Below, in pieces: positions 4,340-46,215 of a stretch of 64,000 nucleotides of DNA. The notes under the pieces are model-generated. The model searched no databases and had not been told where the DNA came from. It saw only the letters and a list, made by a program, of their open reading frames with translations. The stretch lies in IMG/VR virus record IMGVR_UViG_3300045988_076504, positions 32,001 to 96,000 of that record; one strand, written 5' to 3'. The position numbers were made by a program, and so were the translations under genes. Source of the DNA: a virus. Numbering within the stretch: position 1 is the first letter of the stretch; each line of letters begins with the position of its first letter.

Positions 4340-4345
4340 TAAAAT

Positions 4346-4993: not shown

Positions 4994-5050
4994 TATATTT
5001 TAACATATTTTATCAAAAAATTGTACATTGATGCAACCATAAACGCATAA

Positions 5051-5140: not shown

Positions 5141-5276
5141 TTTATGAAGGTTCATAGCCATTTTTTAATTAATCCTTTTATTTCTTTTAACTACGGAAGA
5201 TAAAATAACTGAGAAGGTTTATTGTTACGATCATCCGAGCGCATACAATAACCACGACGCTCTTGCTATAGCAGCT

Positions 5277-20721: not shown

Positions 20722-22442
20722 TATATAGATATGACCAACCTGTAGATATGCCAATTCCAGAACTGTATGATACCGGTTTAATGTAGGCATACACACAGGC
20801 GATAAGAGAGCAATTTGAAAAAGGAGAAAAGCGTTTAGATGAGTTTGCATCAAAGTATGGAAACTTCACATCTCCTTTTGCTAAAGATATACAAGATTGG
20901 GACAGATTGACAATGGGTCGAATAAATAATATTTATAATGACCTTGTATCCAGAGGCATAGATCCATTGCGTAGCAGAGAAGGTTAGATGCTAATGGCAT
21001 AGGCTATTAGACAAACACCTGTTGGTAAATTAAATCAATTAAGGCAGTCTGCTGCAATAGGTGAACAATATCTCAAAGCCAAAGGAGATTTACAAGCGAA
21101 GGGTTTGTATAGCCAGGAGATGGAAGATTACTTTTTAAAACATCCTTTTAGTCAATGGAGTACTTCTGAAAACGGATTGTTTAATAGAACATCTCCTTTG
21201 CAATATAAGGATATACATGATATCACTGATGATTGGTTTAAGCATTCTGAGAAAAAATTTGATGAGAAATTAACAAAGCAGAAAGCGGACGGTTATGATT
21301 ATTATACCGTTTCTGAAGATGATATACATGGTATTATAAACAGTAATATTAATGACTTTCTGGATAGCGATTACGGTCGTTATTATTATTAGAAAGAAAA
21401 GAATTTGGTTTAGCGTCTAAATCCTACAGCCACACAAGATTAGATAGAAAATATGGCGATGTAGAAGTTCAGAGAAGATATTGTCAATAGAAACAGTGAT
21501 TATCTAAGAAACGAACGTAAAGTCAACGAATATGCTAAATTGGATTATGAGGATAAACTCGAACGTAGTAGAAAAGAGTGGGAGTGGGCAAACAAACCGT
21601 CTGGAAAATCTGGCGGTCCTCAGGAAACATAGAACTATCATCAGAACATGTTGTTAAACGGTTTGTATAATTTATCAGGCAATACAGATTTTCTTGATCC
21701 TGGTGTTTCAAGCAAAACCAAAACAACTATTGCATCTAAAGCTATTTCTTATTTGAAAGACGCTGTAAAAGGGTTTGATACAAATCCAAAGGAGAGACTA
21801 AAACAGATAATAAAATACACAACAATATAGGGGTCTGAAGAAAAACCTTCTTTTATAGGCGAGAAATTTAACCATAAAGCAGGAAAGTCGTATGGTAATT
21901 GGATGATCGGAAACAAAAAGGTCGAAGGCTTGACATTATCTCAAAACGAATTGAACACTTTAATCAGTGATATAAATTGGGGTGCGATGACAGTAAACAG
22001 TAATATTAAACAGTCACATGCGTTACATAACAACATAGCAAACCTTTCCAAAAAAACTATTTCATACGAAGTTACTGATAAAAATAATAAATCAAAGAAA
22101 GTAACAAAAACAAAACCTAAATACAGATTTATTCTTATTCCGGATACATACAACAATGTCGCAACAACAATAGATAAAAACGGAGCTGCTGTACAAGCTA
22201 ATCGTGGAACGCTGTATGCTGTAAATACAGATGATAACTCAAAACAAATAAATCTCGGTAAAACATTCATACCGTTTAATAAAACAGATCCTGTGACTAC
22301 AGATGGAAAAGCTAAAACTAACGAAATTACAACAGCATCCGGATATAGAACAAGAACAGATCAACAAGAAAATAGTGTACGTAAAGTATTAGGTATGAAA
22401 AATACCGATAAGGGTGCTAATACGGGAGATTATGATTATTGA
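20718..22442 (+). CDS. Hypothetical virion protein
   Basis: ATG at 20718 overlaps TGA at 20719 (ATGA). ORFs 21105, 21648 and 21903 are all in frame 0, joined only by TAGs. TGA at 22440. Confidence 0.6.
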
Positions 22443-22444
22443 TT

Positions 22445-25400
22445 ATGGGAGATATTAGAAAATTAAGAGCCATCTCCGCAAATGTGAGACGGCAAGAAGA
22501 ATATCAGCAGCGATTGAGGAATGAAGAGCGTGAGAAAAAACGCAAAGAAGAACTTCTTCGTCAACGTGAAAAGGAATATTAGGAAGCTTTAAAAAAGAGA
22601 AAACAGGCTGAAGAAGCCGACGCACTTATACGAAAACATAAGGAGGAAAATAATTATAAGCCTGTTGATTCTCTAATAACAAAATCCGAAGAGCCTCAAA
22701 AACAAGATTCTGCCGATATAATAAGACCTGTAACTAAACCTCAACCGAGTATATATAAAAGTCCTTTTAGAGAAGATACAATATTTGGAGCAGATGGTAA
22801 ATTAAACAAGTACGATTGGACAAAGTCTGAAAAGGCTATGAAATATACTCCAATGGTACAAAAAATGGTAGATAAATATAAGCAGGATGAGAGTGACAAG
22901 CGTTTGAGATATGCCACAACTCCTGCTCGTATTGCTAACATGATGGCAGATCAAGCTGATTTGGAAGAAGCTCTTGCAGCGATGGGTGCTCAAAATGATG
23001 CGAATACCATGGCAATGAAAGAGGAGCTTAAAAAGATCAAAAACGACATTCAAAAGGAAGTAGATTGGTATACTGCAACAACACCTCGTAGTAATTAGAG
23101 TGATATTAGAACAGATAGTTCGCGACTTATTTCTTATTTTGATGCTGGTGGTATAGGAGAAGCTTCTGTAGATATAAATCATGCGTTAAAACAGCAACAA
23201 CAAGCTAAAAAGCTCGGTCTTATTAATGACGGTCAGTCTTTGCTGGCTGACGCGTATCACACGTTCATGATTTCTAAAAACGAAGTTCAACGACAAACAT
23301 CACAAGGTAAAATTAATACTCTATAGCAACAGTTAAATATGGCGAACCCTCAGGGTCTGGACGAGTATCAAGACATATGTGAACAATATATACAATTAAA
23401 TCAATGGTTGAACAGTGTTAAAAGAAGATATACTAGCGGACAAGGAATTACACCAGAAGAGAAAAGACAATGGGATCCTGTACAGAAAAAGATCAACGAG
23501 TTAAATAGCAAGAAAGAACAATATGAAAATATGTTTAATAATCTTGCTACTTTTGAAAATCAAACAACTGTTGGAGATTGGGTGTCAAATTCACAAAAAT
23601 ACTTAAACAAACTCAATTTGGATTTTGGTACTGGTGTTGGAGGATCTTTGAAAGGATATGGTGAAAATATAACCGGTTTTTAGAAAGCATTGGCCAATAG
23701 AGATCAAAAAGCTGTAAATTTTTATAAAAACAAGTTAAAAGGTATATTTAAGAATTTCTCTGCAAAAGGTGAAGAAATGAAAAAACTTTGGTAGAGAGAT
23801 TATGATATAGATACTGCAGATTTAAATCGTTGGACATCGGACTACAAAGTATCTGAATATTTCAAACAAAAAGAACAAGAAGCTAATGATTTAGCATGGT
23901 ATAATCCTAAAAAACTATGGATGGCTCCGTCTTTGTTAGGATCGTCTATGTCTTCTCCGGAAAAAACATTAATGTCCGTGGGAGCCGGATTGATAGCTCT
24001 CATGGGTTCGATATTAGCTCCTGAGACAGGAGGTGCTTCTATAGCACTTACAGCAGGAGCCGTATCATTCTTAAGCAGTATGGCAGCAGGAGCTGATGAG
24101 AACTTTGCAAATGTCGCAGATGCTACAAACGAAATAGCCAAGAAAGATTTAGCTAAAAAAGGTCAGATGGATAAATTTTTAGCTGATGCCAGACAAGTTC
24201 TTGGTTATAATACAACAGAAGAGGACGCGTTACAAGCATTTTATCTCGGCAAATATGTTCCGAATGACTTTAAGATACGTCAGACTTTGTTAGATGCTAC
24301 GGCAGGTTCTGCAAAGCAGTATTATCAAGGTATGGGTGTAAATACATGGGATTCTCTTGTAGATGCTATTGTTACATGTATGCCTACTGGTGGTATTGCA
24401 AAAGGATCTAAAGTTGGGTTCTTAACAGATAAAATCGCAAGTAAAGCGGATAGAAAGTTGTTGAAAGCTCAGCTTTCTAAATATATGAAAGCAAACAATG
24501 TATCTCTCAAAGAAGCTATCAAGGCTTTCAATGAAAGCGGTGCTAGTAGAACAACAATATAGAACGCCATAAATGATTTACGACAAGCTGTCAATGCTCC
24601 TGCTAATTATCTAAGAACGCTATCTAAAGACGTTGTAGAGAAAATGGGACTCCCTGTATTGCAACAAAAAGCAAATGCGTTGTTAGACAAAGGTCTCGCT
24701 AAAATGGCAGAAAGATCTTTAAGACATACAGCTAATGTTACAGACATGCTTGCAGCTGTTCCAGAAAGAGTTTTGAAGTATAGAAAAAACTTAAGACTTG
24801 CTGGTAAACTAGCAAAAGATCTAGGATGGCGTACAGCAGCGTCTATGTATTCTGAAGGTGCAGAAGAAGGTATTCAGCAATTGCAACAATATCAACGTAT
24901 GGAAGAAAGGTCGAATGCGTATTTCAATGTATTAGAACAACTTCCTCTTACGATAATTGATGGAGCTAAATTATGGAGTACGTTCTTATTTAAGAATCCA
25001 GAGAACCTTACAGCGCAAGAAAGAGATATAGTACAACAGATGCATGGTGGTATATTGGGAGCTTTGTTACAAGGTGGACCGATGATTGCAGCACAAGGAG
25101 TTGGTGGTACGTATAAGCAATACAAGCTTGATCAGATTATAATGAATAACCTTTTAGCAGACAATATAGCAACAAATGACTATCTTGATAAAGCTAGGAT
25201 TTTGTCGCAAGAGCTTGGAAAAGGGAATTATAAGAACATTATAGAAACTCTGAATCAATACGATGAGTTAACTACAAATATGCGAAATCGTCATAAAGAC
25301 GATCCTAATTGGGCGCTTCCTCAAAATCATATAAGCAATCTCCATAAACTTTTAAATGTTGTTGCAAATTTGCAACAAAACGAAGAGGTTAAAAAAATAA

Positions 25401-28400
25401 AGAATTCTATTTTTAATTATGAAGATGATACGAAAGGCGTTATAAGAAAAACCGCAAAAGGTATATGGGATAATACATTTAATAGAAAAGATGCAAAACG
25501 CAGAAGCCAACTTAGAGACGATTATAATACATATATAGGTATCTTAGCAACGAGGTTGAACGAGATAAATGATTCCAAACAGTTCTTGGACGAAAAGACA
25601 AGAGATCTTATTTCTGCAAGATTTAATCAAGGTACATTTGAAGACTATGTGAACAACAATCAAGCTAATCCTCTTGTAGCGGAACTATCTACAAAAATTG
25701 AAAAAGATGAACACGGATATCATTTGGCTGACGCATATAAAGATAACCAAGATCTACAAGAGAAGTTTAAATTGCTACAAGAAAATTATTAGACTCACAA
25801 TTCGAATGCAGAAGTACTCCATAGTCTTATAGGTTAGATGCAGACGATGCAGCTTTTACAAGACATGGAGAAGATTAAACAACTCCCAGGAGGAACCACA
25901 CTGTCATCTAGAGCTAAGTTTGAAGTTGATCGTACTAAAAAACGACTTCGTGAGTTACATGGCGATAATATAAAGCTTGATACAGAAGAAGATGTTAAGA
26001 ACTTTGCAGCATCACAAGGCTATAATATAGACGACGATTATGTGGATGCATTAAGACAGGTATCTGATGCTAGAATGCAAGTGAACTTCAATACGGAAAT
26101 GTTCAACAGGCTCATTACAAATACGAAAGACGCTGTAAAAGCTGTCAAATCATTTAAAGAGAATCGTAAAGCCGATGAGGAGTTAAGATAGAGTATTGAA
26201 GATGATTTCTACAACAATGAAATAGATCGTCAAAAGTTCGAAGCGTCGGAAATAAACGATGATAACAATACATTTACAAAAGACGGTAAAACGTATGTTG
26301 TACGTGATGATTCTGATGGTGTACGTAGAGTATACGAATACGACTCTGAAAACGACAAGCTTGTTCCTACAAATAAATAGTTCAATAAACGAGAGTGGTA
26401 CGATAGTAGATAGTAGTTTGATGCTGAAACAGCAGACCATGAAAAACTCAGAGCTAAATATGACGATTATAAAAGCTTGCTCGATAAAGATGTAAATGAT
26501 CTGACGGATCAAGAGAAAGAAAGACTTGAAACATACAAAGGTATGTTAGATAAGTTTAATCGTTTTGATGATTCTGAGCAAGCAAGAAATAAGTATTTAG
26601 AAGATGCTTCTAAGACTCCAGGATTAAAAACAGATTATACAGAAACCTTTAGAAATTTATCAGAGTACGCTAGCGAAAAAGGATATACTCAAGATCAATT
26701 TGATAGCCTTGTAAACGAATTAGCAAAAACATCAAACGATGGTTATAGAACCAGAGAATAGAAAATACGCAAATGGGTTGAAGATGGTAGAGATGTCGAA
26801 TATTCTTATACAGGAGATTCTTATTTTATTGGAAGCGATCATGTGTCAAAAGAAGCTTATGATTATGCTAAATGGTTGCAAAAACGTAACGAAAATCAAG
26901 ATGACGTTGTAGAAGATGACGAAGTTTTGGTAGAGCCTCCAATTGTTCCAGAGACTCGACCAGAAGATGAAGATAACTAGAGAAAAGCTTATCAAAAGCC
27001 AGAAACTACGTTTACGCATAATGGAAAGCCTATCACCTTGCAACAAGCTTAGGTTTTAACACAACTGCAGCCGTATCTAGCATCTGATGAAAAATATCAT
27101 TATGAATGGCGTACTAGTGAAAACTATTTTATAGAAGAGAATGGTAAAATTGTAATGTACAATCGTCTACATAGTTTGTTAGATCCGTATATTGCAGATG
27201 AGCCAGAAAAAACAGAATCTATAAAAGAAAATACAAGAATATTACAAGCCGCAAGAGACAAATGGAAAACCGCTATTGACAATAACGAATCTTCTGACCG
27301 AATTAAAGAGTTAAGAAAAGAGTATGTTTCATTAATCGAACAAATGCGTGACGATTATAACGAAATAGTTATGCTCAAATATAGTCAGAATGAATCAGAT
27401 GTTAAAAGATTCTATTTAAATTTTGATGGATATTTTCAAAATGACGACATTCTTATAAGCGATGATGCTGTAAACGCAATGGCTACCATGCTTGCTCGTA
27501 AAGATAACAATTTGTTCGAAGTTGGATCTACCACAGTATCTGGTACAATTGTAGACGAAATAGCAAGATCTGTATTCGCACATTCTCGTGTGGACAATAT
27601 TCCAAGATTTAAAATGAGCGATGAAACATTTTCTAAACTCGTTAAAGATCTAGAGAAAGAAAGAGATCGCTGGGAATCACTTGGTTATACTATTGTAACA
27701 GAAGGATTGTGTTTCCATGGTGAAATCCAAGACAAAGATGGTAATATAGTCCGAGTTGCTGGAGAAACAGACATGTTAGCAATAGCTCCAGACGGGTCTA
27801 TTACAATCGTAGATTATAAAACGTCTAAGAAATCATGGGAAACTAAACAACGTCCTACAGGTGTACAAAGTACCGAAAGTGTTATAGACGCATTGGATTG
27901 GCAATATAGCAAACGCTATGCTTTTGGTAAACGACAACGTTCTACAGCAAGAGTATTCTATACAAATCAATTGAACGCATACAGGCAAATGATAACAAAC
28001 TGTACTGGATTGTCTGTTGCAAATCTTCAACTGATGGGATTTTAGACAGATATTGAAGAAAGTAATGATAGAATATTGTTAAACAAAATAAAATCTATTA
28101 GCGAACCTACAATTGTAGATATTGCTGTATTAGATCCTGTATTGAGTGAACATTCTTATATAGAACAACGTAGTGTAATAGAAGAAAGAATAAAGGAAAC
28201 TAAAGAGCGTACAAAAACCGCATTTAAAGAATATACCGATAAGTTTGCTGCTGTTGGAGAATTGATGCAAGACGTTCAAGATCCTAAATTACAAGCTTTG
28301 TATAAATATGCGAAAGAACAGATTGATAAGATTGGAGACATTGATCAGATCAACGACTTGGACAGATTAAACTAGCTTTATAATTGGATCAATAATAGCA

Positions 28401-31400
28401 TGTCCAGTTTACGTAATTTGGAAGCGGAAGCTCAACAAGCATTGAATGCTCAATCAGAAGATGCGTCTAGAAACGAAGGTGTTACACCTAACAGCAAAAA
28501 ATTCAATGCTCCACACAGAGTGTATAGTGATGAAGAGTTGAAACATTATAATCACACAGCACAGGATCCTAAATTCTTAAACGCCCAATAGAAGAAAGAA
28601 TTACAAACGTTCAAAGATTGGACAACACGACCAGATTTCGCATAGAATGTTCAGTTTGAAATAGATTTCGATGCGTCCGGGTTTATACATGGAGTACCTA
28701 CAGCGGGTACCAGATTAAAATTCAAATCTATAAGTTATAACGGTGTTAAATTATCACCATCCGTTGTGCAGAATATTTCATTTATGTGGTCTGTTGATCA
28801 AGACGCATCATCATTACGCCAGCGTCTTATACAATGTTTTAATGACAATTATGACGATATCAAATCTGGCAAAAAGAAAATCATATTAAAGAACGTACAA
28901 AGAACAAACGGTAAATTACTATTCGGTGATACTTCTAAAAATGTACAAGAAGCGTTGGAATTGTCAGACGAACAAGTTTCAAATTTGTTAAATTATGATA
29001 GCGATGCTGTACTATTAATATCGGATAGTGCTGGTATTGTACGTAGATTGGATAGTGAAGATAAGAAAGCCGGGTCTGGAACCGCTGAGCGTATTTCTAA
29101 AAAAGAAGAAAATAGAAACCGTCCTGGTATTGTATACATACAAAAGTAGCTGCATTATGCTGAAGATGAAGGATCTGGAAATAAACCACACACAGCTTTA
29201 ATTCCGCTCACGCCTGCTAAAATGTCATCTGGTGCAGTAGATCTCATAATAGATATTCTTACAAACACCGGTAAATCCAAAAATATGTCTGCAAAAGACA
29301 ACAACGGAAATTCAATACCGGGACCTATAAATAGATCATTACTGTTACACTACTTAATCCGTTTTGGAGGTGGTGCTGAAGCTATGATGAATAGTTTCCA
29401 ATTCAATTATGAAAGTAATGGTCAAAACGGTTTGGACTACAGTAAAGTATTCATAAGTACAGATAGAGGTTAGACAAAAACAACTTATAACTTAAAAGAC
29501 ATACAAGATGTATAGAAATTAAGAGAGTGGTTGTTAAATAATGCATATTTGAATGTACAAAATATATCTTTGATTCGAGATAATGTAGCAACATCTAAGG
29601 ACGGTATTTTTGCAGGAGTAAAAGAATGGTTTGATAATCATCCTGATGTAGAATCTATATCATACTCTGACGAATTTGTAATAACGAGAGATGATGTAAA
29701 TTCTAATATCGGAGGAATACAATGGATGATTAAAAACAACTGGTTGCAATCTCAGTATACTGGTATTACGGACGCTATTGTATCTGCTAATGATTTTGAC
29801 ATAATAGATCAAGTTCAAAACGCTCCAGAAAATATTTAGAAACAGCAAGATGATTTTGATCGAGCTGTGGAAGAGCAACTAGGACCGATTCCGGACGGTG
29901 TAAACGATAACAACGATCAAAACACAACAAACGATGCTCCGATCTCTTTTGATGACTGTGATAACGCTTGGGGAAACATAATAGATCCTAGCGCGACACT
30001 ATTCATGAGAAACCCAGAACATCCAAAACGACCGATAACAGAAAAACGTCAAATGGACAAAGCTATTCAAGATGTCAAAAGGATGTGTGGAGATACAGTT
30101 CTCATAGAAACGTTGGACAGTGTTCAAATGGCTGAAAGATTTGGAGATGCTGTTGGAGCATGTACTCAAGCAAGTATTGTGTTATCGTACGGTGCGGAAA
30201 ACGGAGTTCAATACCACGAAGCATTTCACAGAGTTGTAGAATTAGCAATGCCAAAAGATGAGCGAGACAAATTGTATAATCTGTACAAGACTAAATACGC
30301 TAAGAATACAAACCTTAAAGATAAGGATGTTGCTGAAGATTTAGCCGATATGTATTTTGATTACAGTAAGAATGTATGGCACCCGAGAAATAAGTTGTTT
30401 GCAAAACTATTCTCGAAAATATATAATTATATAAATGCTTTATTGACAACAAAAAGTTTTAAATTTGCAGCAACGTTTGTTAGAATTGATTACGGTAAAT
30501 ATGCTAAGAATGAAATAACAAAAGAAAATCAAGACCGTTTTACAAAAGAATTCCACAATGTACTGAAAATGACATTGAAAGATTCTACTGGTAAGGAGCA
30601 TGTATTTAATAATGTATATACACAAACACAACTAAAAGACGCTGTTGATGTATTGTTACCTTTAATAATCAAATCTCAAGGTATCGATATTCTTGGTTCT
30701 AACGCAGATACTCTAAAAACAGATAAAAAATCTTTGCTTGCAGAAGGTTCTAAATTCGCACAAATATATAGACAGTTAACGTGTGGTGATGCTACTGAAT
30801 TATAGTTAAATCAAGCTGTTGCGGAAGGTAAGTTGTCTCCACTAACAAGAAATAATGCATTAGCTTTACGAGAAGTGTTTGACAACTGGTCTCTTGTACA
30901 ACCGATGTTGGAAGACAAATTACGTGCCGTCGGACTTCGTTCGAAACTTGGAGATGTCAATCAGATAAGTGCAGATGTAACTAGTCATACAGACGATGCC
31001 TTTTATTCTCATTCTATGAGTGACGATATAGGTTCTGCGATGCTTTATTTACTTAGTACTATACCAAATCAAAGGTATGTTACACAAGAAGATGTGGCTT
31101 CTGGCTTAGCTAAAAACATGTATGCTACAGATAAAAATGGAAATATTATAATGGAGAATGGTAAACCGAAACGCGCTACTATTCCAGCAATACGTAATAG
31201 TTTCGGAATGACTTCGTATCTTCCATTTAAAGCTGTACACCAAAGAATGTTAACAGAATTGCACGATGTAAAAGATGTTCGTGATTTGGTAGAAAAACTT
31301 AAGAAGTTAGGAGAAGTAGATTACTTATTTAACACTCTTGCACAGTATCTCGAAAGATTTAGATACTTGTCATATATAAGGTTTTCAGATAAAGAGAAAT

Positions 31401-34400
31401 TTGGCGAATATGTAGGATTCCCTGTCGTGATGTATAAAAACGCAATAGTCGATCCGTCATATTATATTGCAGATACATCTATTCGTAATGAAGATACAAT
31501 GTATCCTAAACAAATACGCCTCGTTAAGGATTTAAAGGACAAAAAGGGCAATCTCATATGTAAGGCTGGTGATATATTACAAGGAGCTGCTATATTGTAG
31601 GATCAAGATAAACAAACATTAACAACGTTGTTTTATCAGTCTATAAAATCACAGAAGATGAATTTCAACTTCTTCAACATTAGAAATTCTAAAGGTGAGA
31701 ATGGAAGATATGAATATTCATATTAGCCTACAAATACAGACAGATCAATATCTCAGTTGCCTATAGGGTGGTTTGATAATATTAGAATAGGTCTTACAGG
31801 TTTGTATAACAAAGATGGTTCTGTTAATAAGTCTAACAAATCATTTGAAACGACAAGGCAATTCTTGATGTCCATAAGAAACCAGCTTATTAATAATTCT
31901 GGATAGGTATAGATTGGTGATAAGATATATAAAATGAGCGACGCCGCTGATTTCGATCATGTTGTTTCTGCTACTGTACAATCTTTAAATAATGTTGGCA
32001 TAATGGTAAATAAAGCAACATGGTACAACATGTTGCATCGATTAAATCCGAACGAAACCGATTACACAATATCGTTTAGAGAGATCATGACAGCAAGTAA
32101 CGAAAAAGGTCTTAGTATCGCGCCATTTATAGAAAAAGGTGGAGTATTAGATAAATTACAAAAAGCTGTTGATTCTGGCGATTTGAATATGTTTACACAA
32201 GACGTTGCACAAACTGGAAAGAGAGGTGGTTATTCTGGAGCATATTTATACGCTAGAAATAATTTTGTTAGAAGACTTGCTGAAGAAACCGGTGTATATC
32301 GGTCAGCAACATCTGAAATAATGACAATTGGAGCAGGAGATACTAAATTGTATATGTATGCTCAAAACAATACCGCATCTGATGTTACTGACGATTTGAA
32401 TTCATCTCTTAACGAAGACGGTACGGTTAGAGAAGGATCTATTTTGAGCGATATGTAGAATGTAGAATATGTAGTTTATCATGACGACCGTGGCGGTATA
32501 CATGGATCTGTAATAGCAAAGGCTTTATTAGATCCTAATTTTAATAGAAATCATAACAGACTCGAAGTTATTACAGAAGCCGGTTCTAAACAAAGATTTG
32601 GACCAAGAGATAGCGTAAAGTTTGCAGAAATGGAAAAACGAACAGATTATCTTTCTCGTATTCAAAAAATAACAGACGGTCTTATCATATTCCCAACATT
32701 GTCTGATAAATCCACATATATGACAATAAAAGGTTTTGATAAACAGTACAGACTTCCAGGATTTAATTACGACTAGAATATTACAGAAACAAGTTCTACT
32801 GCAGATTTAAATAATTTCGGGAAACTTCCGTTCATAAATAAAAACAACGGTGCTCTTATATTTGATGCTGCTGATAAATACAACAATTATTCTCAAAACG
32901 AAGTGATCGACCAGTTTATAGAGTATTATGAAGCAGAACATCGTAATGTGTTAAAAACGTTAAATGAACTTGGATTTGGTCCGGACAAAAGTAAAAAATT
33001 ACCTAAAGAATAGCTGGTTAAGAACTATCATACCGGTAGTATGAACGGTGCGAGATATACTTCTATTTCTGGAATATATGATGAAAATGGTAATTTTATA
33101 TCATTTAATTTTAAAACCGATTCCGAAGATAAAGGTGTTATTGAATGCAACAAGATTGCAGAAACAGAATTCTTTAGTAAGCCGATAGAAGAAAAAAGAG
33201 CGATTGTTGCTAGAATATTAAAACACAGACTTGATGACGAATTACGCGGTTTGGTTGATGCCGGAATTATACAAAAGCAAAATAATGACAATTCTTCTCG
33301 GAAGAATGCAGATTATAATAATTATAAAAACGTGTTTTTATCGAATAGTGTGATAACACAACTAAAATAGGCGTATTCGTTAAATGAAAACTTTAAGAAA
33401 GCTGCGCCTGGATCATTAAATACTGAAAGTTTAGCTGTAGTAGCGTATGTATACGATATTATGTGTAAACATCTGATGTGTATAGAAGAAACACGTAGAT
33501 TCTATACAGGTATGCCCCAGTTCTTTAAAACAAGTTTCGGAGAAGATGGTCGTTTAACTGTTTTTGGAAATGATGAAACAAAACGTTACGGTGGTGTCGG
33601 ATCTACTGGTGTAAACAATAGAGAAGATATTCCGGGAATGAACGATGATTATCGTGTAGCTGAAATAAATGATTGGGAAACACCGTCTCCGGTTTTAGAT
33701 TCTTTAGGAACGTTGTTTAAGATTGGAGAATATAGAGAGGCAGTCGCTAATATAAGATTGCGAGAGCTTGGAGAAAATGCAAACGAAATTTAGAAATATG
33801 CTTTGTATGATTCTGTAAATTAGATGGACGAAGATGCAATGCGAGAAGTACTAGATGAAGCAGGCGTATTAAAAATGCTGGATAAAAAGATAGAAAAAGA
33901 AGCAAAGGCTTTCTCTAATGTGAATGTAGCTGATGGTACGGCATTCATTAGTGACAAGATGTGCGAAAATCTTTTGAAACAGCGTGGCGCATTTACAAAA
34001 GCTGTTGAAAATGCATTTAAAATACTGCGTAGTGATTCTGACGATTATCTGAAATTGTCCCAGTCATATAAAATTATACACAACGCTATGATCTCTACAT
34101 AGAAATATTCAGCGTTTGGTTATAGAATGGAGAATGGTACACCTGTACATTATTATAATAAATATGCATTATTTCCGGTCTTTAAAGGAATATCGTACGG
34201 CTTTATGAAGAATCTGTATGAAAAAATGAATGACGCTGAGAATGGAGTAGATGTTGTATTGTTTACATCTGCTGTTAAAGCAGGATCTCGTGGAGCACAG
34301 CGTTTTGATCCGAACATATCTCAAGAAGAAATTAAAAATTTCTCGTTTAAGGGTCATATATATAAGTAGAAATACAAACATATGCGTAGACAGTTGAACA

Positions 34401-35236
34401 CTGATCCTAGAACAGACGAAATAATGTCTGCTGGTACACAGGCGTTAAAAGTTGTATTATCTACATTACGAGACGGATAGACATACAATATACTTGGACC
34501 AGACGGTTAGATACACGAAGCCACATCTTCCGAAGTTAGAGATCGTGTAATGGAATTACTCAATAAGATTGCTGATTCAGGGTGGAATAAGTTGTAGGAT
34601 CAATTCTTCACAAACGGCAACCTTGATTATTCAAAACTACAAGACTTCTTAATTCATGAGTTACTTGGAAGAGATGCTGATCAAAATATACTCGATGCTT
34701 TGTAGCTCAATGAAAACAAAGATGGCTTCATAGTAGATTTAAATAGTGTTTCTAACATGACTTGGGTTGAAAGTATTTTGACGTCCAAAGTAAACAAAGA
34801 TGTTATTGATTTACAACTTAAGGGAAACGCATTCTATCAGAGATCTGTATTTGGTATGGATAGTCCTTATATCGCAATGAGCGACGATGAAGTGTCCAAC
34901 GAAATAAATGGAGGAAAACCATTACAAATGATCAATGAAGAAGGTAGTATGGATGCTGTGGTATCTATAGATTATTTTATGGATATTATTCCAAAAGAAT
35001 ACAAATACAATTTTAATAAAGCTAAGCAGTGGCTTATAGATAATGGTATTATATCCGGTGTAAAAACTGGAGAAATAGCATGGAGCAATGCAGAAGCAAA
35101 CACCATGTCGTATCGTATTCCTACACAGGCTGCATCTTCAATCGGCGCATTACGATTTGTAGATGTGTTACCTATTGTCAGAGACACTATTGTACTGCCT
35201 AAAGAATTTACAGCTTAGACTGGTTCTGACTTCGAT
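22445..35236 (+). CDS. Giant virion protein, exon 1 (includes PD-(D/E)XK nuclease-like and HExxH segments; ends in ...TGSDFD)
   Basis: Twenty track ORFs from 22838 to 34757 are all in frame 2. Every junction I checked is TAG (about 40 in-frame TAGs by manual count). ATG at 22445. Exon 1 ends at U35236, the 5' splice site. Confidence 0.75.
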
Positions 35237-36162
35237 AAACATCAATGTCGAAATAAAAGTATGTGAATTGCTGGGAAATCCCTATGGGACAATCAGCAGC
35301 CTAGCCCTACGAAAGGGAAGGTTCAACGACTAATAGTATATTATATAATAATTCCTCATAAATTGAAGAAAGAAATGAAAAAGATTTTAAAAAATAGATT
35401 AAATGAAAATGGTAGAAATCTCCTAATTGCCGCTGCACTTGGAGATGGATGTATAAGTAAACAAGGATAGATGTTAATAAATCATTCTTGGAAGCAATAC
35501 GAATATTGTAAATGGAAACGAGAACTTTTAAAAAAGAACGGAATAAAAGTAGGTGTTTTACAACGTTTTGAAGGTTCAAATGGATATTTAAAACACACAA
35601 TACAATATAGATTTTGCATTGGTATTACACCATTTAACAAAGTTCTAAGACGTATTATGTACAATGAACACGGTAAACATTATTCTCGTAAATTATTAAA
35701 CAGACTAAGTCAACAAGGTCTTGCCTTGTGGTTTATGGACGACGGTGCAATATTACGTAGAAAATATAAAGGTAAATATTGCGGGTTCTATTTAAGAATA
35801 TCTACATATTGTACATCACAAGAAGCTGATGATATTATTAAATATTTTGTTGAAGAATGGGATATACACCCTACCAAAGTACATGAAAATAAAATAAAAC
35901 ATTATGATGCTTATACTATCAATTTTGGAGCAAAAGAAGGTAAGAAGTTAATAGATATAATTAAGCCTTATATGTGTCCAAGTATGATGTATAAAGTGTT
36001 ATATGATATCGAAGAATTAAAATCTTATTATGATATACAAGATGTGAGGGAAGTTCTCACAGAAAGTACATTAGAGTCTGATAGACTACTAATGGAAGCG
36101 CATACTACATCGAAAGATGTAAAGATATAGTCTAATCTTCGTAGCAATACGAAGTATAAATG
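35237..36162 (+). mobile_element. Group I intron (926 nt) carrying a LAGLIDADG homing endonuclease ORF
   Basis: P1: exon TTCGAU (35231-35236) pairs with GUCGAA (35247-35252), with a U-G pair at the splice site. P10: AUCAAU (35241-35246) pairs with exon 2 AUUGAU (36163-36168). Terminal G at 36162. GNRA hairpins CCC-UACGAAA-GGG and CUUCGUA-GCAA-UACGAAG. Splicing restores the frame and gives ...GSDFD|IDKLYM... Confidence 0.85.
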
Positions 36163-36163
36163 A
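35375..36163 (+). CDS. LAGLIDADG homing endonuclease (double-motif)
   Basis: ATG at 35375. Motif 1 is LLIAAALGDGCI and motif 2 is LALWFMDDGAIL. The in-frame TAG at 35468 separates motif 1 from the rest, so it must be read as sense. The TAG at 36128 is also read through, and TGA at 36161-36163 straddles the 3' splice site. Confidence 0.85.
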
Positions 36164-39100
36164 TTGATAAGTTATATATGTCTACACTTCATTATGATGT
36201 AGAGTCTGTTGACAACGATTATATCGATAAAAAAGGATAGATACACAGAAGAAAGACATATAACGCTAAATCTTACAATTTATCAGATGTTACAAACAAT
36301 AACACAAACGAGTTGTTGCGCATATATTTGTCTTTGTTAAAAGATACCGGATAGTACAAAGATGGAAAGATTGTAGGTGGAAGATACGGACACGTATTAA
36401 GAAGATCTATTGATAGTGATACGGATTTGATAAAAGAGGTTCTTTCAGAAATAGAAAGTAGTATAGAACAAAAAGCATACGAACCGTATCAATTTGAAAG
36501 TATGTCGTTTTAGGTTAATACCAGATCTGCATTTGCAACCGGTAAAACTGGTATCGGACCATTTGCGCTGAATAACAACAGTCAAATTCTTACACAAATA
36601 TATGGCATCAAGTTTATAAACGATGGTGGTATATTAAGTTCTTTCGGAGCTTTATCATTAGATAGGACTTCGGACGTTGATGGAAAATCTATATTATCTT
36701 GGATTTCTGGTATGATTAATGCTCACGTAGACGTTGCGAAAGACCCGTATATATTGAGATTAAATATCAATAAAGACACATATAATCTTGCAGCATTGTT
36801 ATTACGTTTAGGATTTGGAAGACACGCTCTTTATTTCTTAAACAATCCTGTAATGAGAGAGCTTTCTGCTATACGAAATGAGCAGGACGGATAGATTGTA
36901 AACGACCCTGGAAAAACTCCAACACAGCGTAAAGAAAAAGCTGAGAATGAATACATTAAAGATGTATTCGGTAGTAATAGTGTGGCATTCTCATACGTAA
37001 ATGCAAAACCAGATGAAAAAGATGATATTGCTAAACGAGCTTTTAAAACGATTGTACAGATATTTGGAAATCCTTTTAAAGAACATAAAGATACTACAAT
37101 ATTACAAAGTATTTGTTAGAGTTTGTATGGAGAAAATGGTGAGAAAAAGGTAACAGATCTGTCAAAGGACAAGATATATAAGTTGGAAGATGGTACAAAA
37201 TTATCACCATTTGAAGTTCAACAATATGTATATATAGCATCTAAAGAATTTGAATCTTACGCTTAGGGTTTGTCAGACTTAGTACAATATACTAAAATCG
37301 ACACAAAGAAACAAGGTATAAATTATACAGAACAGTAGAAGTATTTGCAAGGTTATGAGAAACTTTACAATAGCGGAATGTTTAATTCAAATCTGAAACA
37401 ATTGTTGAACGATTCTTATATACATACAAAAACAATATACGGTACTTCATTCTTACCTAGAGTATTAGGCGGACAAATGATCCATATGTCATATCAATTC
37501 CAAGCTGAAACAGAATCGATTTTGGATAAAATTAACAACCATTCTAAAAATTCTAGAGAAGCTGTACAAAAAGCAATGCTGTGTTATATTAAACAAAAAG
37601 CTTTCAATAAGGCGTTTAAAGATTATGTTGATAAATATAACGAGCAAAATAATACAGACTACACAATAGAGAAATATTGGGAACATTTAATAAAAGGAAA
37701 CGATACTTTATCTAATCGTATTTAGAAGCTACAGAGATGGATATAGGCTGATAATAAAGGACTGCTAAAAGAATTCGGTTAGAATGGTGTTATAACAAAT
37801 GCGATACTTAAGAACTTATATCCGGTACCGTACATATCTCAATATGGGCAAGATCACTTTGATATTATCACTTTAGGAAATAATAGCGAAGATGAAAAAT
37901 CTATAAGTAATGATTATATATATTCATGGGAACAGATGTTAAATTATACAAATAGTGAACGTCTGGGATTACAGAAATATATTAGAGATTTAGCTAACGA
38001 TCTTGCTATATACGCATTTATGACATCTGCAGACAGTAAAGGATTTACAAAATTCTTTAAATACGCGCCACTTCAATGGAGAAAAGAGTTTGGATATTGT
38101 GATAATATTGCGGAAGCAAACAAAGAATATCAAGAAGGTGGTCTCACATTAACTACAGACAATGTTAGCGAATACGGTATCGATTTCGATGATTTTATAT
38201 AGAATTTCTATTACGACAACAATATATTACCGGAAACGTCTTTAACTGATCGTAATGGTCGCCAACAAATGGTTACTTCAGCATTTACATATAACACTCT
38301 TGACGAATACGGTAATCCTACATTACGTACAGAACCTAAAAATATAATAGGTCTTAACATGCGTGGTAATAAATATGCACAAAGTATTAGTAAAAACAAA
38401 GACGGATACTTCCCAGAATATATAAAAACACGTAGAAACGGAACACGATATAACGATAACGATCAATTCCTATTGTATAAACTCGTAGATGTCGGAATTG
38501 TAAAGAATGGAAATGTCGAATTAGAATATCCAATATATCAAATTATAAACGCCAAAGGTTTACAAATGCAAATTGGTTCACAAACATATCAATTCTATTC
38601 TTGTGGAATGAATGATAATTACGAGCGTTCTCAATTTACCACGAAAGATAAATCTGGAAATAGGGTAAAGCCAACCATGGAGCAAGTGCAAGAGTCTTAT
38701 AATAACCGCAAAGCTGCTTTATAGAAATACATCAATGAGAATAATTATTCTATACTTGATGCGGTTAAGAAAGCAGGACTCGTTAGTAAGAATGATATAT
38801 TTGGAGGACAGTTATCTAGTATACAAGAAGCGGCATATAGCGGTATAGGTTCAAATAAGAATACTGTGAATGTTAACTTCGGAGCAAGCGATAATCCACA
38901 TTTGTCTAATTTTGCAAAACGTCCTATTTCTGATATATTTGACGTAGTTGAAAGTTTTATTAATTCTCCAGAGTTTTATAAAATAAAATCTACGGTTAAA
39001 CATAAGGCAGACACTGTAGAAAATGCGTTCTAGGCGTTAAAAGTGTTGTATTCTGATTTGAATGATAATGATAAGGTGGTTAAATTTAATCATATTATAT

Positions 39101-39465
39101 CACTACCGTCTGCAAAACAAGCTAGAGCGGAAGGTAGATCGTTACCTATTAGTAGTACAAAACTTAAAATGTGGGACGATATAAGTACTGATGTATTACA
39201 GTCTTTGATGAGGGCTTCTTTTGAGCAGAATGAAGACGCAGCGCAAGCATTGGTTGATACTGGTGATAAAATAATAACACATGATAACGCAAAAGGTGAA
39301 TCTTTAGATGATAGATTTGCTCCAGCATTGACTCAGATACGCCAAGAGTTAATAGATGGAGGACATGCTCCAAACACTGTAAAACAACAATAGTCTTTGA
39401 AAGATTATCCCGCTAACGAGGCTCTTGATGAATTAGCAGATCAAATAGACGAACAATGTAAATAA
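36163..39465 (+). CDS. Giant virion protein, exon 2 (RNAP-like region continues; C-terminal NADAR domain)
   Basis: Starts IDKLYMSTLHYD. ORFs 36712, 37345, 37936, 38269 and 39043 are all in frame 1, joined by TAGs (about 14). A genuine TAA is at 39463-39465. Exons 1 and 2 together give about 5364 codons. Confidence 0.75.
38860..39393 (+). other. NADAR (YbiA/DUF1768-like) domain at the C-terminus of the giant protein
   Basis: PHLSNFAKRPI, VENAF-(TAG)-ALK and WDDISTDVLQSLMRASFEQNEDAAQALVDTGDKIITH parallel my recollection of E. coli YbiA: FSNFAAWPI, EHYFQAQK, WESVKEQVMRKALRAKFEQHAELRALLLATAPAKLVEH. Confidence 0.75.
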
Positions 39466-39474
39466 CAAATCATT

Positions 39475-42400
39475 ATGGTATGTTTAATTAAAAGTAAATA
39501 TAAAGAAGAATTAGATTTATACACATAGTTGCTAGGCTCTGAAAAACGAGCCTACGCGATTTTGTGTTGTAATAACGGATATACTCTAGACAAGACTAAA
39601 GATGGAAAACCATCTAAATTGTATAATGATTTGTTAGAGTATTATAAAGGAGATGTAACAAAAGCTGTGCAAAAGAAAGCATAGCTTTTTACATCTGAAT
39701 TTACAAAAGATTACGGTCAATGGTACCAAGACGGATATGAAATATCTGACGAATATAAAGATGTATTTGATGAGAATGGAGAACCGCTGCTTAACGGCAC
39801 ACATTTTGGTACAGCAGATAATAAGATATTACTCGGCGGGCAGAAAAAATTTGCATCAATAGAAGAGGAGGAACAATATATATTAGAGCACGCTACACGT
39901 GATGAAAATGGAAAACTATTGGCACCTAATGGCAAACCTTCAAATCTTACAGAAAAACAATACGCTCAAGTGAGAACTAAAGCCTTTAAAGAGTGGTTTG
40001 GTGATTGGGAGAATGATCCAGAGAGTGCTTCTAAGGTAATAGATGAAAATGGAGAACCTTTGGTTGTTTATCATAATACACCATTTAAATTCAATGGTAT
40101 ATTTGATATGGATCATGTTTCAAGAATTATGCCGTAGATGTCAGAGCCATTTGGTCATGTAAGGACTAAAGAAACCGCCAATACTATAAAAGGTTCACAA
40201 TACGCTCTTTTCCTCAATTTAAAAAATCCATTAGAAACTCCTGATTTTGTCCACGAATCTGTAAGTTCCATGTTATCCGAGCTGTATAAACAAGGTATCA
40301 TTTCTAGAGAAAAATATTCTTCTCTCAGAGGAATATCTAATTCAGAATTAAGAAATTTGATGCTTTCTTTGGGATATGATGGTACAAAATATGAAAATAA
40401 AGCAGAAAGAGGCGGGATTTCTTATAGTTTTATAACACCTAATCAAATTAAATCAGCAACAGACAACGTAGGTACATTCTCTAAAACTAACGATAATATA
40501 TACAAAAGACGTGGTGAAAAGAGAGACAACCATATGTACAACAGGGAGCGTGCTGTAAAATATATTAAGGATCAAGGATACACAATAGACAATCTGGTTC
40601 ATGACACATATGAGACAAGATTTGAAGTCACATTAAAAGCTAAAACTAAAGAAGACGTTTGGAGATCGTATATAAAGAATATGGATCCTGCGTTAAAGGT
40701 TAAATATGCAGGAGTACGTATTGGTAAGAAAGACCCTAGACTTGAAGTTTAGATTAAAACCAAAGAAAGTGAGTCACTAACTAATCTAAATCAGTTTCTT
40801 GATAAAAAATCTTTAAATACTGCGCAAGATCTTTTACAATATATTATAAAACAAACTAAAGACGAGAATAATCAGAATTTTTCTTTCATCCGTGCTGTAT
40901 TAAAAGATATTAATAAAACTGTTCCCGAATTATTTAGTAATATCAATGTCAAAGTAATTGCCGATAACAATGGTAATTATTCTGCGAAATATGACAATAA
41001 TACAAAAACTATAATTATAAATAGTGCAAGATCGTTCGGCAACGAAAATAATTTCAACGATGAGTTAATACAGACATTGACTCATGAAATGATACATGCT
41101 GTTACGGTGGAAGCGTTATAGAGATCTAAACAATTGCGTGAAAGAGCTGAAAGATTATTATCAGAGCTCAAAAAACAATTTAACAATGATCCAGATATTC
41201 AAGGTATACAGGATGTGTACGAAATGGTTGCCGAATTAAGTAACGATGAATTTATCAAAAAATTGTAGTAGATACAATATTCTACTGATGAAACATGGTT
41301 TGATAAGATAAGAAGATTTATATCTACTGTTATTCGTCACTATCTACGTAAAATAGGGCTACAATATAAAAATACCGCATATTCAGAACTCGCTAATATT
41401 TTTGTACAATCTGCGTACGGTAAGAAAACCGGTTTATAGATGTCTGAAAACATAGATGAAAAGACGGTTTTTAATAGAAACTCTAAAAAACGCATACAAG
41501 AAGCTAAAAAGAAAGTAAAAGCTAAACTGAAGGAAGGTATACATATTGTCGGAACACGTGATTCTACATAGAAGCTTATAGACAAGTTGTCGCAGGATAT
41601 AATATTAGGAACACGTAGTAAAAATAAAGCATATTCTTCTAAAAGAAACAGTAGTGTATCTTACGGAAATGAAAGGTAGATTGCCAGAAACCAAGAAGCT
41701 GTAAATTTTGTAGACGAGCAAGCTAAAACTATAAACGAAGCTATAGCTGAGCGTGATGCAGAAAAACAATTAACCGAACAAGCAAAACTTATACTCGATT
41801 TTATAGATCACGCTGATTCTGATATAAATGAAGTACTACAAATGCTTAAAAACGCATAGGATAACGACTACGATTTAATATATTATAATGTCGACCAATT
41901 TGGAAATAGATTGTATCAAGATCCGTCTGGCAATTCTATAACAGCTCAAACTGCAGGAAATAATACTATAGCCAAGTAGTTTTCATTCGATGATATACAA
42001 TATATGACAACCGATATTTTAGGTTATTATCAAAAACTTCTAAGCGACATTGACAATATGTTATTGTAGGTACCAGTTGGCAAAAATGCAATTGTTGATG
42101 AAATTCGCGATCTTATGCAATCATTAAGACTACACGATCAACTTCGAGCTGCATCTAATATGAAACGACAAGCGCAAGAGAAAATGCTTGATTTTTATAT
42201 AGATCAACGTATAAATCAACAAGAATCATCAGAACTTACTGATGAAATGAAACAGAGGTTGTCTATCAACATGAAAAAATGGGTAAAATCCCAATATGAT
42301 TTTGGAGATGTTGGAAGTTTCGCTGTATGGACGCAACTCATATCTGATTCAAAAAGTCCTATTGTGAGAATGATGGCAGATGAAATCTATACAATGAATC

Positions 42401-45400: not shown

Positions 45401-46215
45401 TAAAACAATAGAAAAAATAGCATTATTATAGAGGAGGTTATAATTTTATGACAGGTCACATTGAAAATGGTATATATATGAGTAACCTCAAAGCTCTTAA
45501 AAGATTAGTGTGGGATGCTTAGAAACACAGAATTAGATTCAATCGCTTTTTCTTGAAATATAGTAATATGACACAAGAAGAACTTAAAAAGTCTGACATA
45601 TCTATGGCGGAATTATATTCACTTAAGCGTATATTATTAGAATTGTCTGTCGTTGCAGGTTGTGTTACAATGTCTGTTTTAGTAAATAGACATTGTCAAG
45701 GGTTGGATCCAGATGACGATGATAATTATTGGTGGTTCTTGTTAAATTCAATTTTCATGAGAATTGGTATTGAACGTGTTACAATGTATAATCCTTAGAC
45801 TGTTAGTGATTTGATTACGTCTATAACAACATTAACTAGTGCAACTTCTAAATTATTTGGTGTATTTGATGTACTTGGTGATTTCTTAGGTCTTACAGAT
45901 CACGATCCTAATGAAATCATAACATCGAATAGTGCATATAATGGCTATACACGGTCTTACAGAGCTACAATGAACGCTCTTTCAATTTTCGGTACAGCTG
46001 GTTGGTTTGCAACAATGCCTAAATCATTAGGAGGTGGTGGAGCTAGAGCTCTTGACAAGTCTGCAGGATGGTATGCTAAAACTGCTCCTTGGAGGTTGTT
46101 ATATAAGAATCAAGATGCTGGATATACACCAGTAGAAAAAGATTATAAAGATCCGTCTCTTGCGACAGATGATATTTCAAATTCTGATTTAGCTACAGAC
46201 GACGTTATAGAATAA
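39475..46215 (+). CDS. Polyvalent-type giant virion protein (about 2246 codons): ART-like domain, HExxH zincin motif, C-terminal hydrophobic segments
   Basis: ATG at 39475 follows the TAA at 39463. Ten track ORFs (39919 to 45811) are all in frame 1, and the 40753-42115 gap was verified codon by codon to contain TAG only. About 26 TAGs. TAA at 46213. Motifs: FKEWFGDWE..DENGEPLVVYHNT...GYDGTKY...PNQIKSATDNVGTF, and LTHEMIHAV at 41083-41097. Confidence 0.7.

Follow-up and report, generated by a model that had tools for sequence, protein, structure and literature searches.

A continuous, intron-interrupted gene for a probable 611-kDa polyvalent virion RNA polymerase protein in a Suoliviridae-like phage

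Introduction

Giant RNA polymerase genes of gut phages have already been called a hallmark (PMC10136315; bioRxiv 10.1101/295642; PMC7886860). RNA polymerase genes of up to ~6,000 aa, recoding of TAG to Gln, and LAGLIDADG introns within the gene block are all in the literature, so the giant fusion, the recoding, and the intron described below are not new but are already recognised in this gut-phage family. Suoliviridae genes of this kind are present in RefSeq as single CDSs of 4,328 aa, 4,946 aa (cr118_1, YP_010110531), 5,801 aa (cr130_1, YP_010113266), and 6,386 aa (cr272_1, YP_010113476), and homologues of 6,320 and 6,581 aa, in the standard code, were found in a big protein library. The giant gene of cr131_1 is annotated as a 4,372-aa product, an intron ORF, and a 1,401-aa product, RefSeq having split the homologue at the intron.

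In the characterised crAss-like phages phi14:2 and phiCrAss001, by contrast, the functions reside on separate polypeptides, partly on the opposite strand in phiCrAss001, and there is no intron, TAG recoding, or polymerase-borne NADAR. The preliminary description of the present DNA had likewise placed the functions in several large virion cargo proteins of such phages. In phiCrAss001, gp47 carries the nuclease and an HExxH motif and gp50 is the RNA polymerase; gp47, gp49, and gp50 are present in the virion (PMC10172136). Polyvalent proteins and the N4 virion RNA polymerase offer a further parallel, being single huge injected polypeptides that combine RNA polymerase, HExxH, and variable effectors, are coded among late virion genes, and have an N-terminal region proposed to act in ejection (PMC5512222; PMC13434306). 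The N4 enzyme differs in that it is T7-like (single-subunit) rather than of the crAss/gp66 type, and in that its HExxH follows the polymerase whereas in the protein described here it precedes it. A 2026 study of N4 raised the question of whether the RNAP-associated cargo proteins of crassviruses act as a unit (PMC13434306).

NADAR enzymes reverse the ADP-ribosylation of DNA by DarT1, and phage NADARs counter DarTG1 (PMC11543638, PMC11257639). They are recognised by a catalytic Glu-Lys pair at a spacing of seven residues and by a third position that is acidic or His (PMC11543638). The phage counter-defence enzymes are free-standing and expressed after infection. Here, we describe a giant gene in a window of 64,000 nucleotides (positions 32,001 to 96,000 of IMG/VR record IMGVR_UViG_3300045988_076504).

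Architecture of the giant gene

We consider it highly probable that the locus is a late gene of a Suoliviridae-like (Delta-group) phage, interrupted by an intron and with TAG encoding Gln, that specifies a 611-kDa polyvalent virion RNA polymerase protein. The spliced product comprised 5,364 aa, encoded by 5,364 sense codons followed by TAA (Table 1). The preliminary description, made from the DNA alone, had proposed a continuous frame of ~5,360 codons, minus an intron, with about 55 TAGs; the spliced CDS contained exactly 55 TAG and 0 TGA codons, with TAA solely as the terminal codon. The motifs it had listed (GETD...VDYK...QLNAY, HEAFH, DFDID, and a NADAR-like segment) all lay where it had placed them. 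After splicing, the order of modules would be a membrane-segment-like N-terminal region, a RecB/Cas4-type nuclease, a zincin-like HExxH block, a crAss-type RNA polymerase, and a phage-type NADAR.

Table 1. Features of the giant gene and its intron, with positions in the window
Feature	Residues or size	Position (nt)	Strand	Evidence
Giant gene, exon 1	aa 1-4264, last residues ...GSDFD	22445..35236	+	Frame without TAA/TGA; collinear with L007, cr130_1, and other Suoliviridae giants
Giant gene, exon 2	aa 4265-5364 + TAA, first residues IDKLY...	36163..39465	+	Reading frame; junction in L007
Conserved N-terminal block	aa 279-960	23279..25324	+	BLASTP blocks common to cr130_1, cr131_1, and cr272_1
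Hydrophobic Gly/Ala-rich, membrane-segment-like stretch	aa 490-560	23912-24124	+	Hydropathy
RecB/Cas4-type PD-(D/E)XK nuclease module	aa ~1553-1866	27101..28042	+	Pfam PDDEXK_1 on tile
Zincin-like block	aa 2376-2971; H2591-E2592-x-x-H2595 + E2631	29570..31357	+	Invariant motif
crAss-type virion RNA polymerase module, across the intron	aa ~3036-5080	31550..38610	+	Profile match to PDB 6VR4
Catalytic DFDID, intron-split	aa 4262-4266	35228-35236 + 36163-36168	+	
Group I intron, within DNA coding for catalytic DFDID	926 nt	35237..36162	+	Rfam RF00028 half-matches; P1 pairing; intron-less L007
LAGLIDADG homing endonuclease ORF, intron-encoded	262 aa; 2 in-frame TAG	35375..36163	+	phrog_11023
C-terminal NADAR domain	aa ~5166-5351	38866..39423	+	Pfam NADAR, phrog_1017

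The gene was on the late strand beside homologues of cargo genes, and its position in the cargo-gene block was syntenic with that of relatives. Two large ORFs that were checked were fibre-like. The Suoliviridae giants occupy the same place in the late cargo-gene block, are TAG-recoded in most members, and share the order of N-terminal block, zincin-like HEAFH, and RNA polymerase with GSDFDID. Oafivirinae members among them also have a C-terminal NADAR, and in cr131_1 that GSDFDID motif is likewise interrupted by a homologous LAGLIDADG group I intron. However, amino acid identity to the protein described here was just 23-31%, the PD-(D/E)XK module had no match in the five RefSeq giants, its matches coming from Steigviridae gp47 and a few others, and the C-terminal payload differed, with NADAR alone in the giant gene of this window. 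A megablast search of the giant-gene span against 50,697 phage records returned zero matches, similarity being found at the protein level only. A single fusion of such size, which the preliminary description had placed among the largest phage proteins, is the Suoliviridae norm. Nuclease, HExxH, RNA polymerase, and NADAR were found in one chain whose architecture varied among relatives, which is the pattern of the polyvalent proteins of Iyer et al. (2017).

RNA polymerase, nuclease, and NADAR modules

The identity of the RNA polymerase module is solid at the level of homology. A profile of 7 homologues matched PDB 6VR4_A (phi14:2 gp66) with E = 1.2e-78, profile positions 165-846 corresponding to chain residues 958-1704, and bore out the RNAP-like core of the preliminary description. 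GSDFDIDKLY (aa 4259-4268 of the spliced product) was invariant in the 7 homologues and aligned to GSDFDIDKMY of gp66. The module also matched RNA polymerase genes of Crassvirales by tblastn and crAss001 gp50 by BLASTP, so that its core is homologous to that of both characterised enzymes. Single-sequence phmmer of the C-terminal 2,764 aa against the PDB gave zero matches, and a PHROGs search likewise missed the RNA polymerase.

Upstream, the conserved N-terminal block had no match in Pfam or PHROG, and PHROGs recognised nothing in the N-terminal 2,800 aa. Hydropathy in this block reached its maximum, 1.71, at aa 508-526. The PD-(D/E)XK-like segment that had been claimed further along was confirmed by homology: Pfam PDDEXK_1 scored 27.3 bits on the tile against a cut-off of 22 (E = 4.2e-6), with 9 of 12 family members matching, and only 19.9 bits inside a 2,800-aa piece. 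GETD...VDYK...QLNAY spanned aa 1773-1846 (nt ~27761-27980), and the motif residues D1776, D1790-Y-K1792, and Q1842-LNA-Y1846 were conserved in crAss001 gp47, to which (aa 1714-1943) the module is homologous; in that protein nuclease and HExxH lie at nearly identical residue numbers. The AlphaFold model of the nuclease tile was of low confidence (mean pLDDT 50.7) and placed a helix, three strands, and a helix in the right order. Foldseek of this model against the PDB returned no match at E <= 0.001, nor did single-sequence phmmer of the tile against the PDB return any.

The claimed C-terminal NADAR was likewise upheld as a homologue with intact motifs, its Pfam score falling just under the cut-off. 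The segment scored 32.5 bits with Pfam NADAR (PF08719; cut-off 35.1; E = 1.2e-7), matched phrog_1017 with E = 2.6e-8, and matched E. coli YbiA (2B3W) weakly, E = 0.41, by single-sequence phmmer against the PDB. Sub-threshold NADAR matches occurred at the same position in cr130_1, cr131_1, cr272_1, and L007, a metagenome relative of ~90% nucleotide identity from a separate assembly and sample. In a by-eye alignment to YbiA, E5217 and K5224 lay in TVENAFQALK and H5304 in IITHD, H5304 occupying the position of the His in phage NADARs. The E...K motif and His position are those of the phage counter-defence enzymes (PMC11257639; PMC11543638); unlike those free-standing enzymes, the putative NADAR here is fused to a virion polymerase. 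In the searchable literature apart from Figure 3 of Yutin 2021, we found no description of such a fusion. The C-terminal domains of relatives varied, comprising NADAR, DUF7831, DUF1848, DprA-like, and SF1 helicase domains, and differed even at 90% nucleotide identity, between the window and L007.

Zincin-like block and possible processing

The HEAFH motif was at aa 2591-2595 (nt 30215-30229). Homologues of the tile were gathered by an alignment query, a first word-indexed search having given one fragment, and the module was present in 3,454 cluster representatives; H2591, E2592, H2595, and the downstream E2631 were invariant among 7 distant homologues. Pfam gave no peptidase or zincin family match on the tile or on 28 family members, and a PDB profile search of the block returned only FtsH and YME1 at E ~1. 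With hhalign, the motif and preceding strand were aligned to the HExxH region of N4 gp50, not significantly (probability 1.3%). The AlphaFold model of the tile (mean pLDDT 52.5; core 60-84) contained strands, the HExxH helix, and two helices, and Foldseek returned no PDB match at E <= 0.001. The zincin of the preliminary description thus stood as regards an invariant HExxH...E motif but found no Pfam, PDB-sequence, or Foldseek match. Together with the low-confidence secondary-structure pattern, the motif suggests a putative zincin, a weaker assignment than the one given in the preliminary description.

The preliminary description had also suggested a polyprotein processed by its own zincin. 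In this scenario the zincin would cut the chain, in the capsid or after ejection, into gp47- and gp50-like pieces and free nuclease and NADAR. The invariance of HExxH...E over very distant homologues argues for a working metal site, and in most relatives the module forms the end of a separate protein of ~2,000-3,600 aa, an end that matches the expected cut point near aa 2,780. Processing has also been proposed for polyvalent proteins by Iyer et al., and DdrB of phage P1 is processed (PMC5512222). However, the zincin fold lacked a Foldseek match and its AlphaFold model was of low confidence, the module borders showed no sign of a conserved linker or cleavage motif, and the HExxH-bearing N4 virion RNA polymerase is packaged unprocessed (PMC5512222). 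We regard processing as unlikely on balance; it would be compatible with the polymerase reading, adding one step to it without replacing it.

Recoding of TAG

Comparison of codons among relatives showed TAG to be read as Gln in the giant gene. Where TAG was exchanged for another codon between the window and L007, 36 of 44 differences were to CAA or CAG. Across six giants, the residue opposite a TAG was Q or another TAG in 22% of cases, compared to a Q background of 4.4%, and in the FQAxK motif of NADAR the conserved Q (Q5221) was encoded by TAG. The pattern was that of genetic code 15, with TAG in conserved late genes aligning with Gln and early genes lacking TAG: the minus-strand ORFs of the window were nearly TAG-free, and the opposite strand without TAG started at ~46.2 kb. 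Reading of TAG as Gln has been validated by metaproteomics in a Suoliviridae phage (PMC9523058). No amber-suppressor tRNA was found in the window, where a tRNA-Leu(UAA) and an odd tRNA-like element were present; the tRNA-Gln of cr130_1 has the anticodon UUG.

With 55 TAGs, a full-length yield needs near-complete read-through. Alternatively, some TAGs could still terminate, giving nested N-terminal products or separate genes such as a gp47-like product ending at TAG 2787. This codon is common to the window and L007 and lies near the terminus of the split homologues, 9 codons beyond the gp47-type end, and the lack of a suppressor tRNA in the window would also fit. At an average of one TAG per 98 codons, however, any given position has a ~20% chance of lying within 10 codons of a TAG, and 38 TAGs lie upstream of 2787. 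Neither a Met nor a start context follows it. The other recoded giants had no conserved TAG column at the border between the gp47-type and polymerase regions, just one column of the whole alignment held at least 3 TAGs, and the cr118_1 homologue, with 0 TAG in 4,946 aa, was continuous at the border. Nor would termination suit a codon that swaps with CAA and CAG and occupies a conserved-Q motif position. We therefore consider residual termination very unlikely. The preliminary description had named gene boundaries coinciding with TAG codons in relatives as a finding that would count against its continuous frame; this check was run, and the frame, which is not a product of wrongly ignored TAG stops, survived it.

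Group I intron

The intron is genuine and its boundaries are exact, 35236 being joined to 36163. Rfam RF00028 half-matches were found at 35199-35377 (43.2 bits, E = 1.8e-9) and 36019-36154 (31.2 bits, E = 7.4e-6). The ORF splits the intron core, which left each half short of the 50-bit gathering score. In P1, the exon end UUCGAU paired with intron GUCGAA (35247-35252), a U.G pair lying at the splice site; the final intron base, 36162, was G. The intron ORF matched phrog_11023, "homing endonuclease with LAGLIDADG motif" (E = 2.3e-20). L007 provided the intron-less allele: it was continuous over the junction, with GACTTCGAT joined to ATTGATAAA precisely at the predicted site, and this exact junction restores DFDID. 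The cr130_1 homologue was likewise uninterrupted at this position. The intron site was 6 nt downstream of that in cr131_1. The intron probably self-splices.

If it did not, exon 1 (ending ...DFDKHQCRNKSM) and exon 2 (from ATG 36160, MIDKLY...) would be two proteins. The last three intron bases do make an in-frame ATG, here and in cr131_1, and RefSeq annotates three CDSs for cr131_1. Against this stand the group I core, P1 with its U.G, the terminal G, and the LAGLIDADG ORF, as well as an allele without the intron in a 90%-identical relative, whose exact junction gives DFDID; moreover, separate translation of the exons would split the catalytic Asp triad over two chains. Two unspliced proteins are thus extremely improbable, and the single spliced gene that had been claimed was sustained.

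Continuity of the reading frame

The frame of exon 1 ran from ATG 22445 to 35264 without TAA or TGA, and that of exon 2 opened at 36160 and closed with the TAA at 39463-39465. As TAA and TGA made up 4.6% and 9.9% of codons in the two other frames of the same DNA, the odds of chance continuity are ~10^-167. The equivalent frame of L007 was unbroken over ~17 kb, without the intron; its total of 6,058 codons includes a C-terminal extension that runs through N stretches, so its full continuity is not proven. Codons that differed between the window and L007 numbered 1074 for synonymous and 370 for non-synonymous changes, and the non-synonymous/synonymous ratio was 0.15-0.48 across all internal 300-codon tiles. 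At the codon level, purifying selection was thus evident along the whole length of the gene. The chance that continuity is an assembly or sequencing artefact is negligible: nothing was found in favour of an artefact in this DNA, which probably comes from a metagenome assembly; an independent scaffold from another sample keeps the frame over ~17 kb, five RefSeq relatives share the architecture, and codon-level purifying selection runs from end to end.

Proposed role

Because of the homology with phi14:2 gp66 and with phiCrAss001 gp47 and gp50, we infer packaging, ejection, and early transcription for the giant protein. It would be synthesised late, packed into the capsid, and ejected with the DNA, and would then transcribe the early genes of the opposite strand. 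The accessory modules would most likely be early-acting helpers or counter-defence enzymes; a NADAR on the polymerase and the fast-changing C-terminal domains suggest that the latter may be delivered ready-made, the likely job of NADAR being to strip the ADP-ribose that DarT-type defence puts on DNA bases. The fusion joins proteins of the gp47 type (nuclease, HExxH) and of the gp50 type (polymerase) in one chain, which supports the idea that the RNAP-associated cargo proteins of crassviruses act as one unit.

A more far-reaching scenario would make the giant chain the crAss-type counterpart of the N4 enzyme, a single machine for ejection and transcription in which the membrane-segment-like N-terminus would aid passage through the envelope, the phage-type NADAR, carried in on the polymerase, would remove DarT-type ADP-ribose from the entering DNA ahead of the first transcript, and the zincin would release or activate modules after entry. 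We offer this scenario as speculative and probably not correct in full.

The giant gene leaves the current picture of Crassvirales unchanged. Its value for annotation is that of a clean worked example: conventional gene callers broke it into ~30 fragments, and a correct reading of the locus needs both code 15 and removal of the intron.

Extent and continuity of the giant gene

On the plus strand, frames free of TAA and TGA extend from 22436 to 35266 and from 36160 to 39465, and joining of the two exons gives a coding sequence of 16,095 nt with 5,364 sense codons, 55 in-frame TAG, no TGA, and TAA only as the terminal codon (predicted product mass, 611 kDa). A preliminary description of this DNA had reported one such frame of about 5,360 codons with about 55 TAGs, which was borne out, and the motifs it quoted were found where it had placed them. 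Because TAA and TGA account for 4.6% and 9.9% of codons in the two other frames of the same DNA, the probability of chance continuity is approximately 10^-167. The giant gene is a real gene that had been correctly and carefully observed.

Features in the region of the giant gene
Feature	Position	Strand	Description
Giant gene	22445-35236 joined to 36163-39465	+	Polymerase fused to nuclease, HExxH and NADAR modules
Group I intron between exons	35237-36162	+	926 nt; RF00028 halves flank an ORF
Intron LAGLIDADG homing endonuclease ORF	35375-36163	+	phrog_11023, E = 2.3e-20
Next gene	39466-46215	+	2,249 aa, 26 TAG; own HExxH (LTHEMIHAV)
tRNA-like element	49531-49602	-	Rfam 36.6 bits; not called by ARAGORN

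[quoted passage not shown] First, L007, a closely related metagenome scaffold from ENA and an independent assembly, has one frame of 6,058 codons through the region. Second, the window and L007 differ synonymously at 1074 codons and non-synonymously at 370, which shows purifying selection, with a non-synonymous/synonymous ratio of 0.15-0.48 in every internal 300-codon tile and relaxation to approximately 1 in the first 300 codons (22445-23344) and the last 260 (38671-39465). Third, TAG acts as a glutamine codon. Among 76 aligned sites with TAG in the window or L007, 32 had TAG in both, 36 had TAG versus CAA or CAG, and 8 had another codon; Q or TAG stood opposite TAG in six distant giant homologues at 22%, compared to a Q background of 4.4%; and TAG 5221 supplies the Q that is conserved in the FQAxK motif of NADAR. 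Fourth, the homologue in cr118_1, a RefSeq member of the Suoliviridae, contains no TAG in 4,946 codons and covers the N-terminal region, HExxH module, polymerase, and a C-terminal helicase. No gene boundary in the relatives coincided with a conserved TAG, and continuity stands.

The TAG at residue 2787 (30803-30805) is conserved in L007 and lies about 9 codons beyond the end point of the split gp47-type proteins of other crassviruses; nowhere else in the gene would a leaky stop reproduce the split layout. However, TAG occurs once per 98 codons in the giant gene, making this position unremarkable, and the cr118_1 homologue runs on through it. Chance probably explains the position.

Called in the standard code, the single giant gene of L007 appears in a public collection as about 30 "proteins", each 64-415 aa long, so that most database homologues of recoded phages are fragments.

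The group I intron

Both halves of the intron core were matched by Rfam RF00028 (E = 1.8e-9 and 7.4e-6), with the ORF in between. In P1, GUCGAA at 35247-35252 pairs with the final six exon bases, UUCGAU, placing a U.G pair at the splice site, and the final base of the intron is G. The L007 allele, in DNA approximately 90% identical, has no intron and reads GACTTCGAT followed directly by ATTGATAAA; this is exactly the predicted junction, decides decisively for it, and restores GSDFDIDKLY. The cr130_1 homologue is likewise uninterrupted, and cr131_1 carries a homologous intron (15735/16647 in its sequence, L003) 6 nt upstream of the window site (35236/36163), between GSD and FDID as opposed to between GSDFD and ID, the P1 guide of each intron matching its own exon end. 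Given its absence from two relatives and the shifted homologue in a third, the intron is a mobile, polymorphic insertion within DNA encoding the catalytic motif.

Two in-frame TAGs lie in the intron ORF, one at codon 32 and one near its end, and the ORF in the cr131_1 intron also has two; TAG read-through is thus needed for the homing endonuclease as well. In both introns the last three bases are an ATG in frame with exon 2 (36160-36162 in the window, 16644-16646 in L003), so that RefSeq begins a separate CDS there in cr131_1. This ATG may be a coincidence or a fallback start.

Protein modules

A profile of seven homologues matched the structure of the phi14:2 gp66 virion RNA polymerase (6VR4; E = 1.2e-78), the alignment taking in the catalytic GSDFDIDK, and by tblastn the polymerase part was closest to Suoliviridae, with cr130_1 and cr131_1 as top matches (28-29% identity). 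The proposed PD-(D/E)XK segment was supported by homology: as a tile it scored 27.3 bits against PDDEXK_1 (Pfam cut-off, 22), 9 of 12 family members matched the same model, and it shares D1776, D1790xK1792, and Q1842xxxY1846 with gp47 of phiCrAss001.

The zincin assignment held in part. The HExxH motif is present, H2591, E2592, H2595, and E2631 are invariant across very distant homologues, and 3,454 cluster representatives carry the module; however, peptidase-family, PDB-sequence, and fold searches gave no match, the predicted structure being of low confidence. The module is taken as a conserved metal-site motif, probably of zincin type, not as a demonstrated protease. Iyer et al. proposed zincin-mediated processing of polyvalent proteins but noted that the N4 polymerase is packaged uncut (PMC5512222).

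NADAR scored 32.5 bits (Pfam cut-off, 35.1), and comparable sub-threshold matches occupied the same place in cr130_1, cr131_1, cr272_1, and L007. The E...K pair is kept, and a His is present where phage NADARs typically have one (PMC11543638). The N-terminal 1,500 aa had no recognisable domain; residues 279-960 form a conserved block with one hydrophobic Gly/Ala-rich segment.

Genomic context

In-frame TAGs occur in all long plus-strand ORFs from 1 to 46215 and are almost missing from minus-strand ORFs from 46271 onward, with GC skew reversing at about 46 kb; this late-versus-early pattern is already known for TAG-recoded crAss-like phages (PMC7886860, PMC9523058). No amber-suppressor tRNA was found within the 64-kb window, though the late genes hold about 200 in-frame TAGs. 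The tRNA-like element has a 6-base anticodon loop (UAUUAA) and is not a CUA suppressor.

Gene order agrees with Suoliviridae relatives: the giant gene follows a gene for a large structural protein and two for proteins of middle size, and precedes one more gene for a large protein, after which the strand switches and exonuclease and resolvase genes begin. The product of the next gene had weak Pfam matches (SprT-like, E = 8.7e-4; MPTase-PolyVal, E = 0.014) and a hydrophobic C-terminal segment, and its own HExxH means that the cargo block has two different HExxH proteins.

Comparison with known systems

The preliminary description had these functions spread over several proteins in characterised phages. 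That is true of phiCrAss001, where gp47 carries the nuclease (aa 1714-1943) and HExxH (aa 2157), residue numbers almost those of the giant gene, and gp50 is the polymerase, both being virion cargo proteins (PMC10172136). In Suoliviridae, in contrast, fusion is the rule, with RefSeq CDSs of 4,328, 4,946, 5,801, and 6,386 aa, and the cr131_1 gene is split by its intron only. A 1.84-billion-protein library also held standard-code homologues of 6,320 and 6,581 aa. Giant fusions of this kind are a known family hallmark, larger ones have already been annotated, and a polymerase gene reaching "up to ~6000 aa" has been described as a hallmark in the literature (PMC10136315). TAG recoding has been reported, together with LAGLIDADG introns in the transcription block and PDDEXK domains in the proteins that the block encodes (PMC7886860), as has the "polyvalent protein" concept of a single injected chain combining polymerase, HExxH domain, and variable effectors (PMC5512222).

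Judging from its homologues, the giant protein would be made late, packaged, ejected, and would then transcribe early genes. The nuclease and NADAR modules, by domain identity, may act early, with NADAR plausibly removing DarT-type ADP-ribose from DNA (PMC11543638, PMC11257639). NADAR fused to a virion polymerase is the least-described element of the giant gene.

The C-terminal domains comprise NADAR alone in the window and NADAR, DUF1848, and more in L007, where about 2.2 kb of extra sequence, including runs of N (L007 18174-20382), corresponds to just 44 nt of the window (39350-39394). C-terminal domains thus seem to have been gained or lost recently. Elsewhere among the relatives the addition is DUF7831, a DprA-like domain, or an SF1 helicase, and such turnover, even between 90%-identical genomes, fits an arms-race role.
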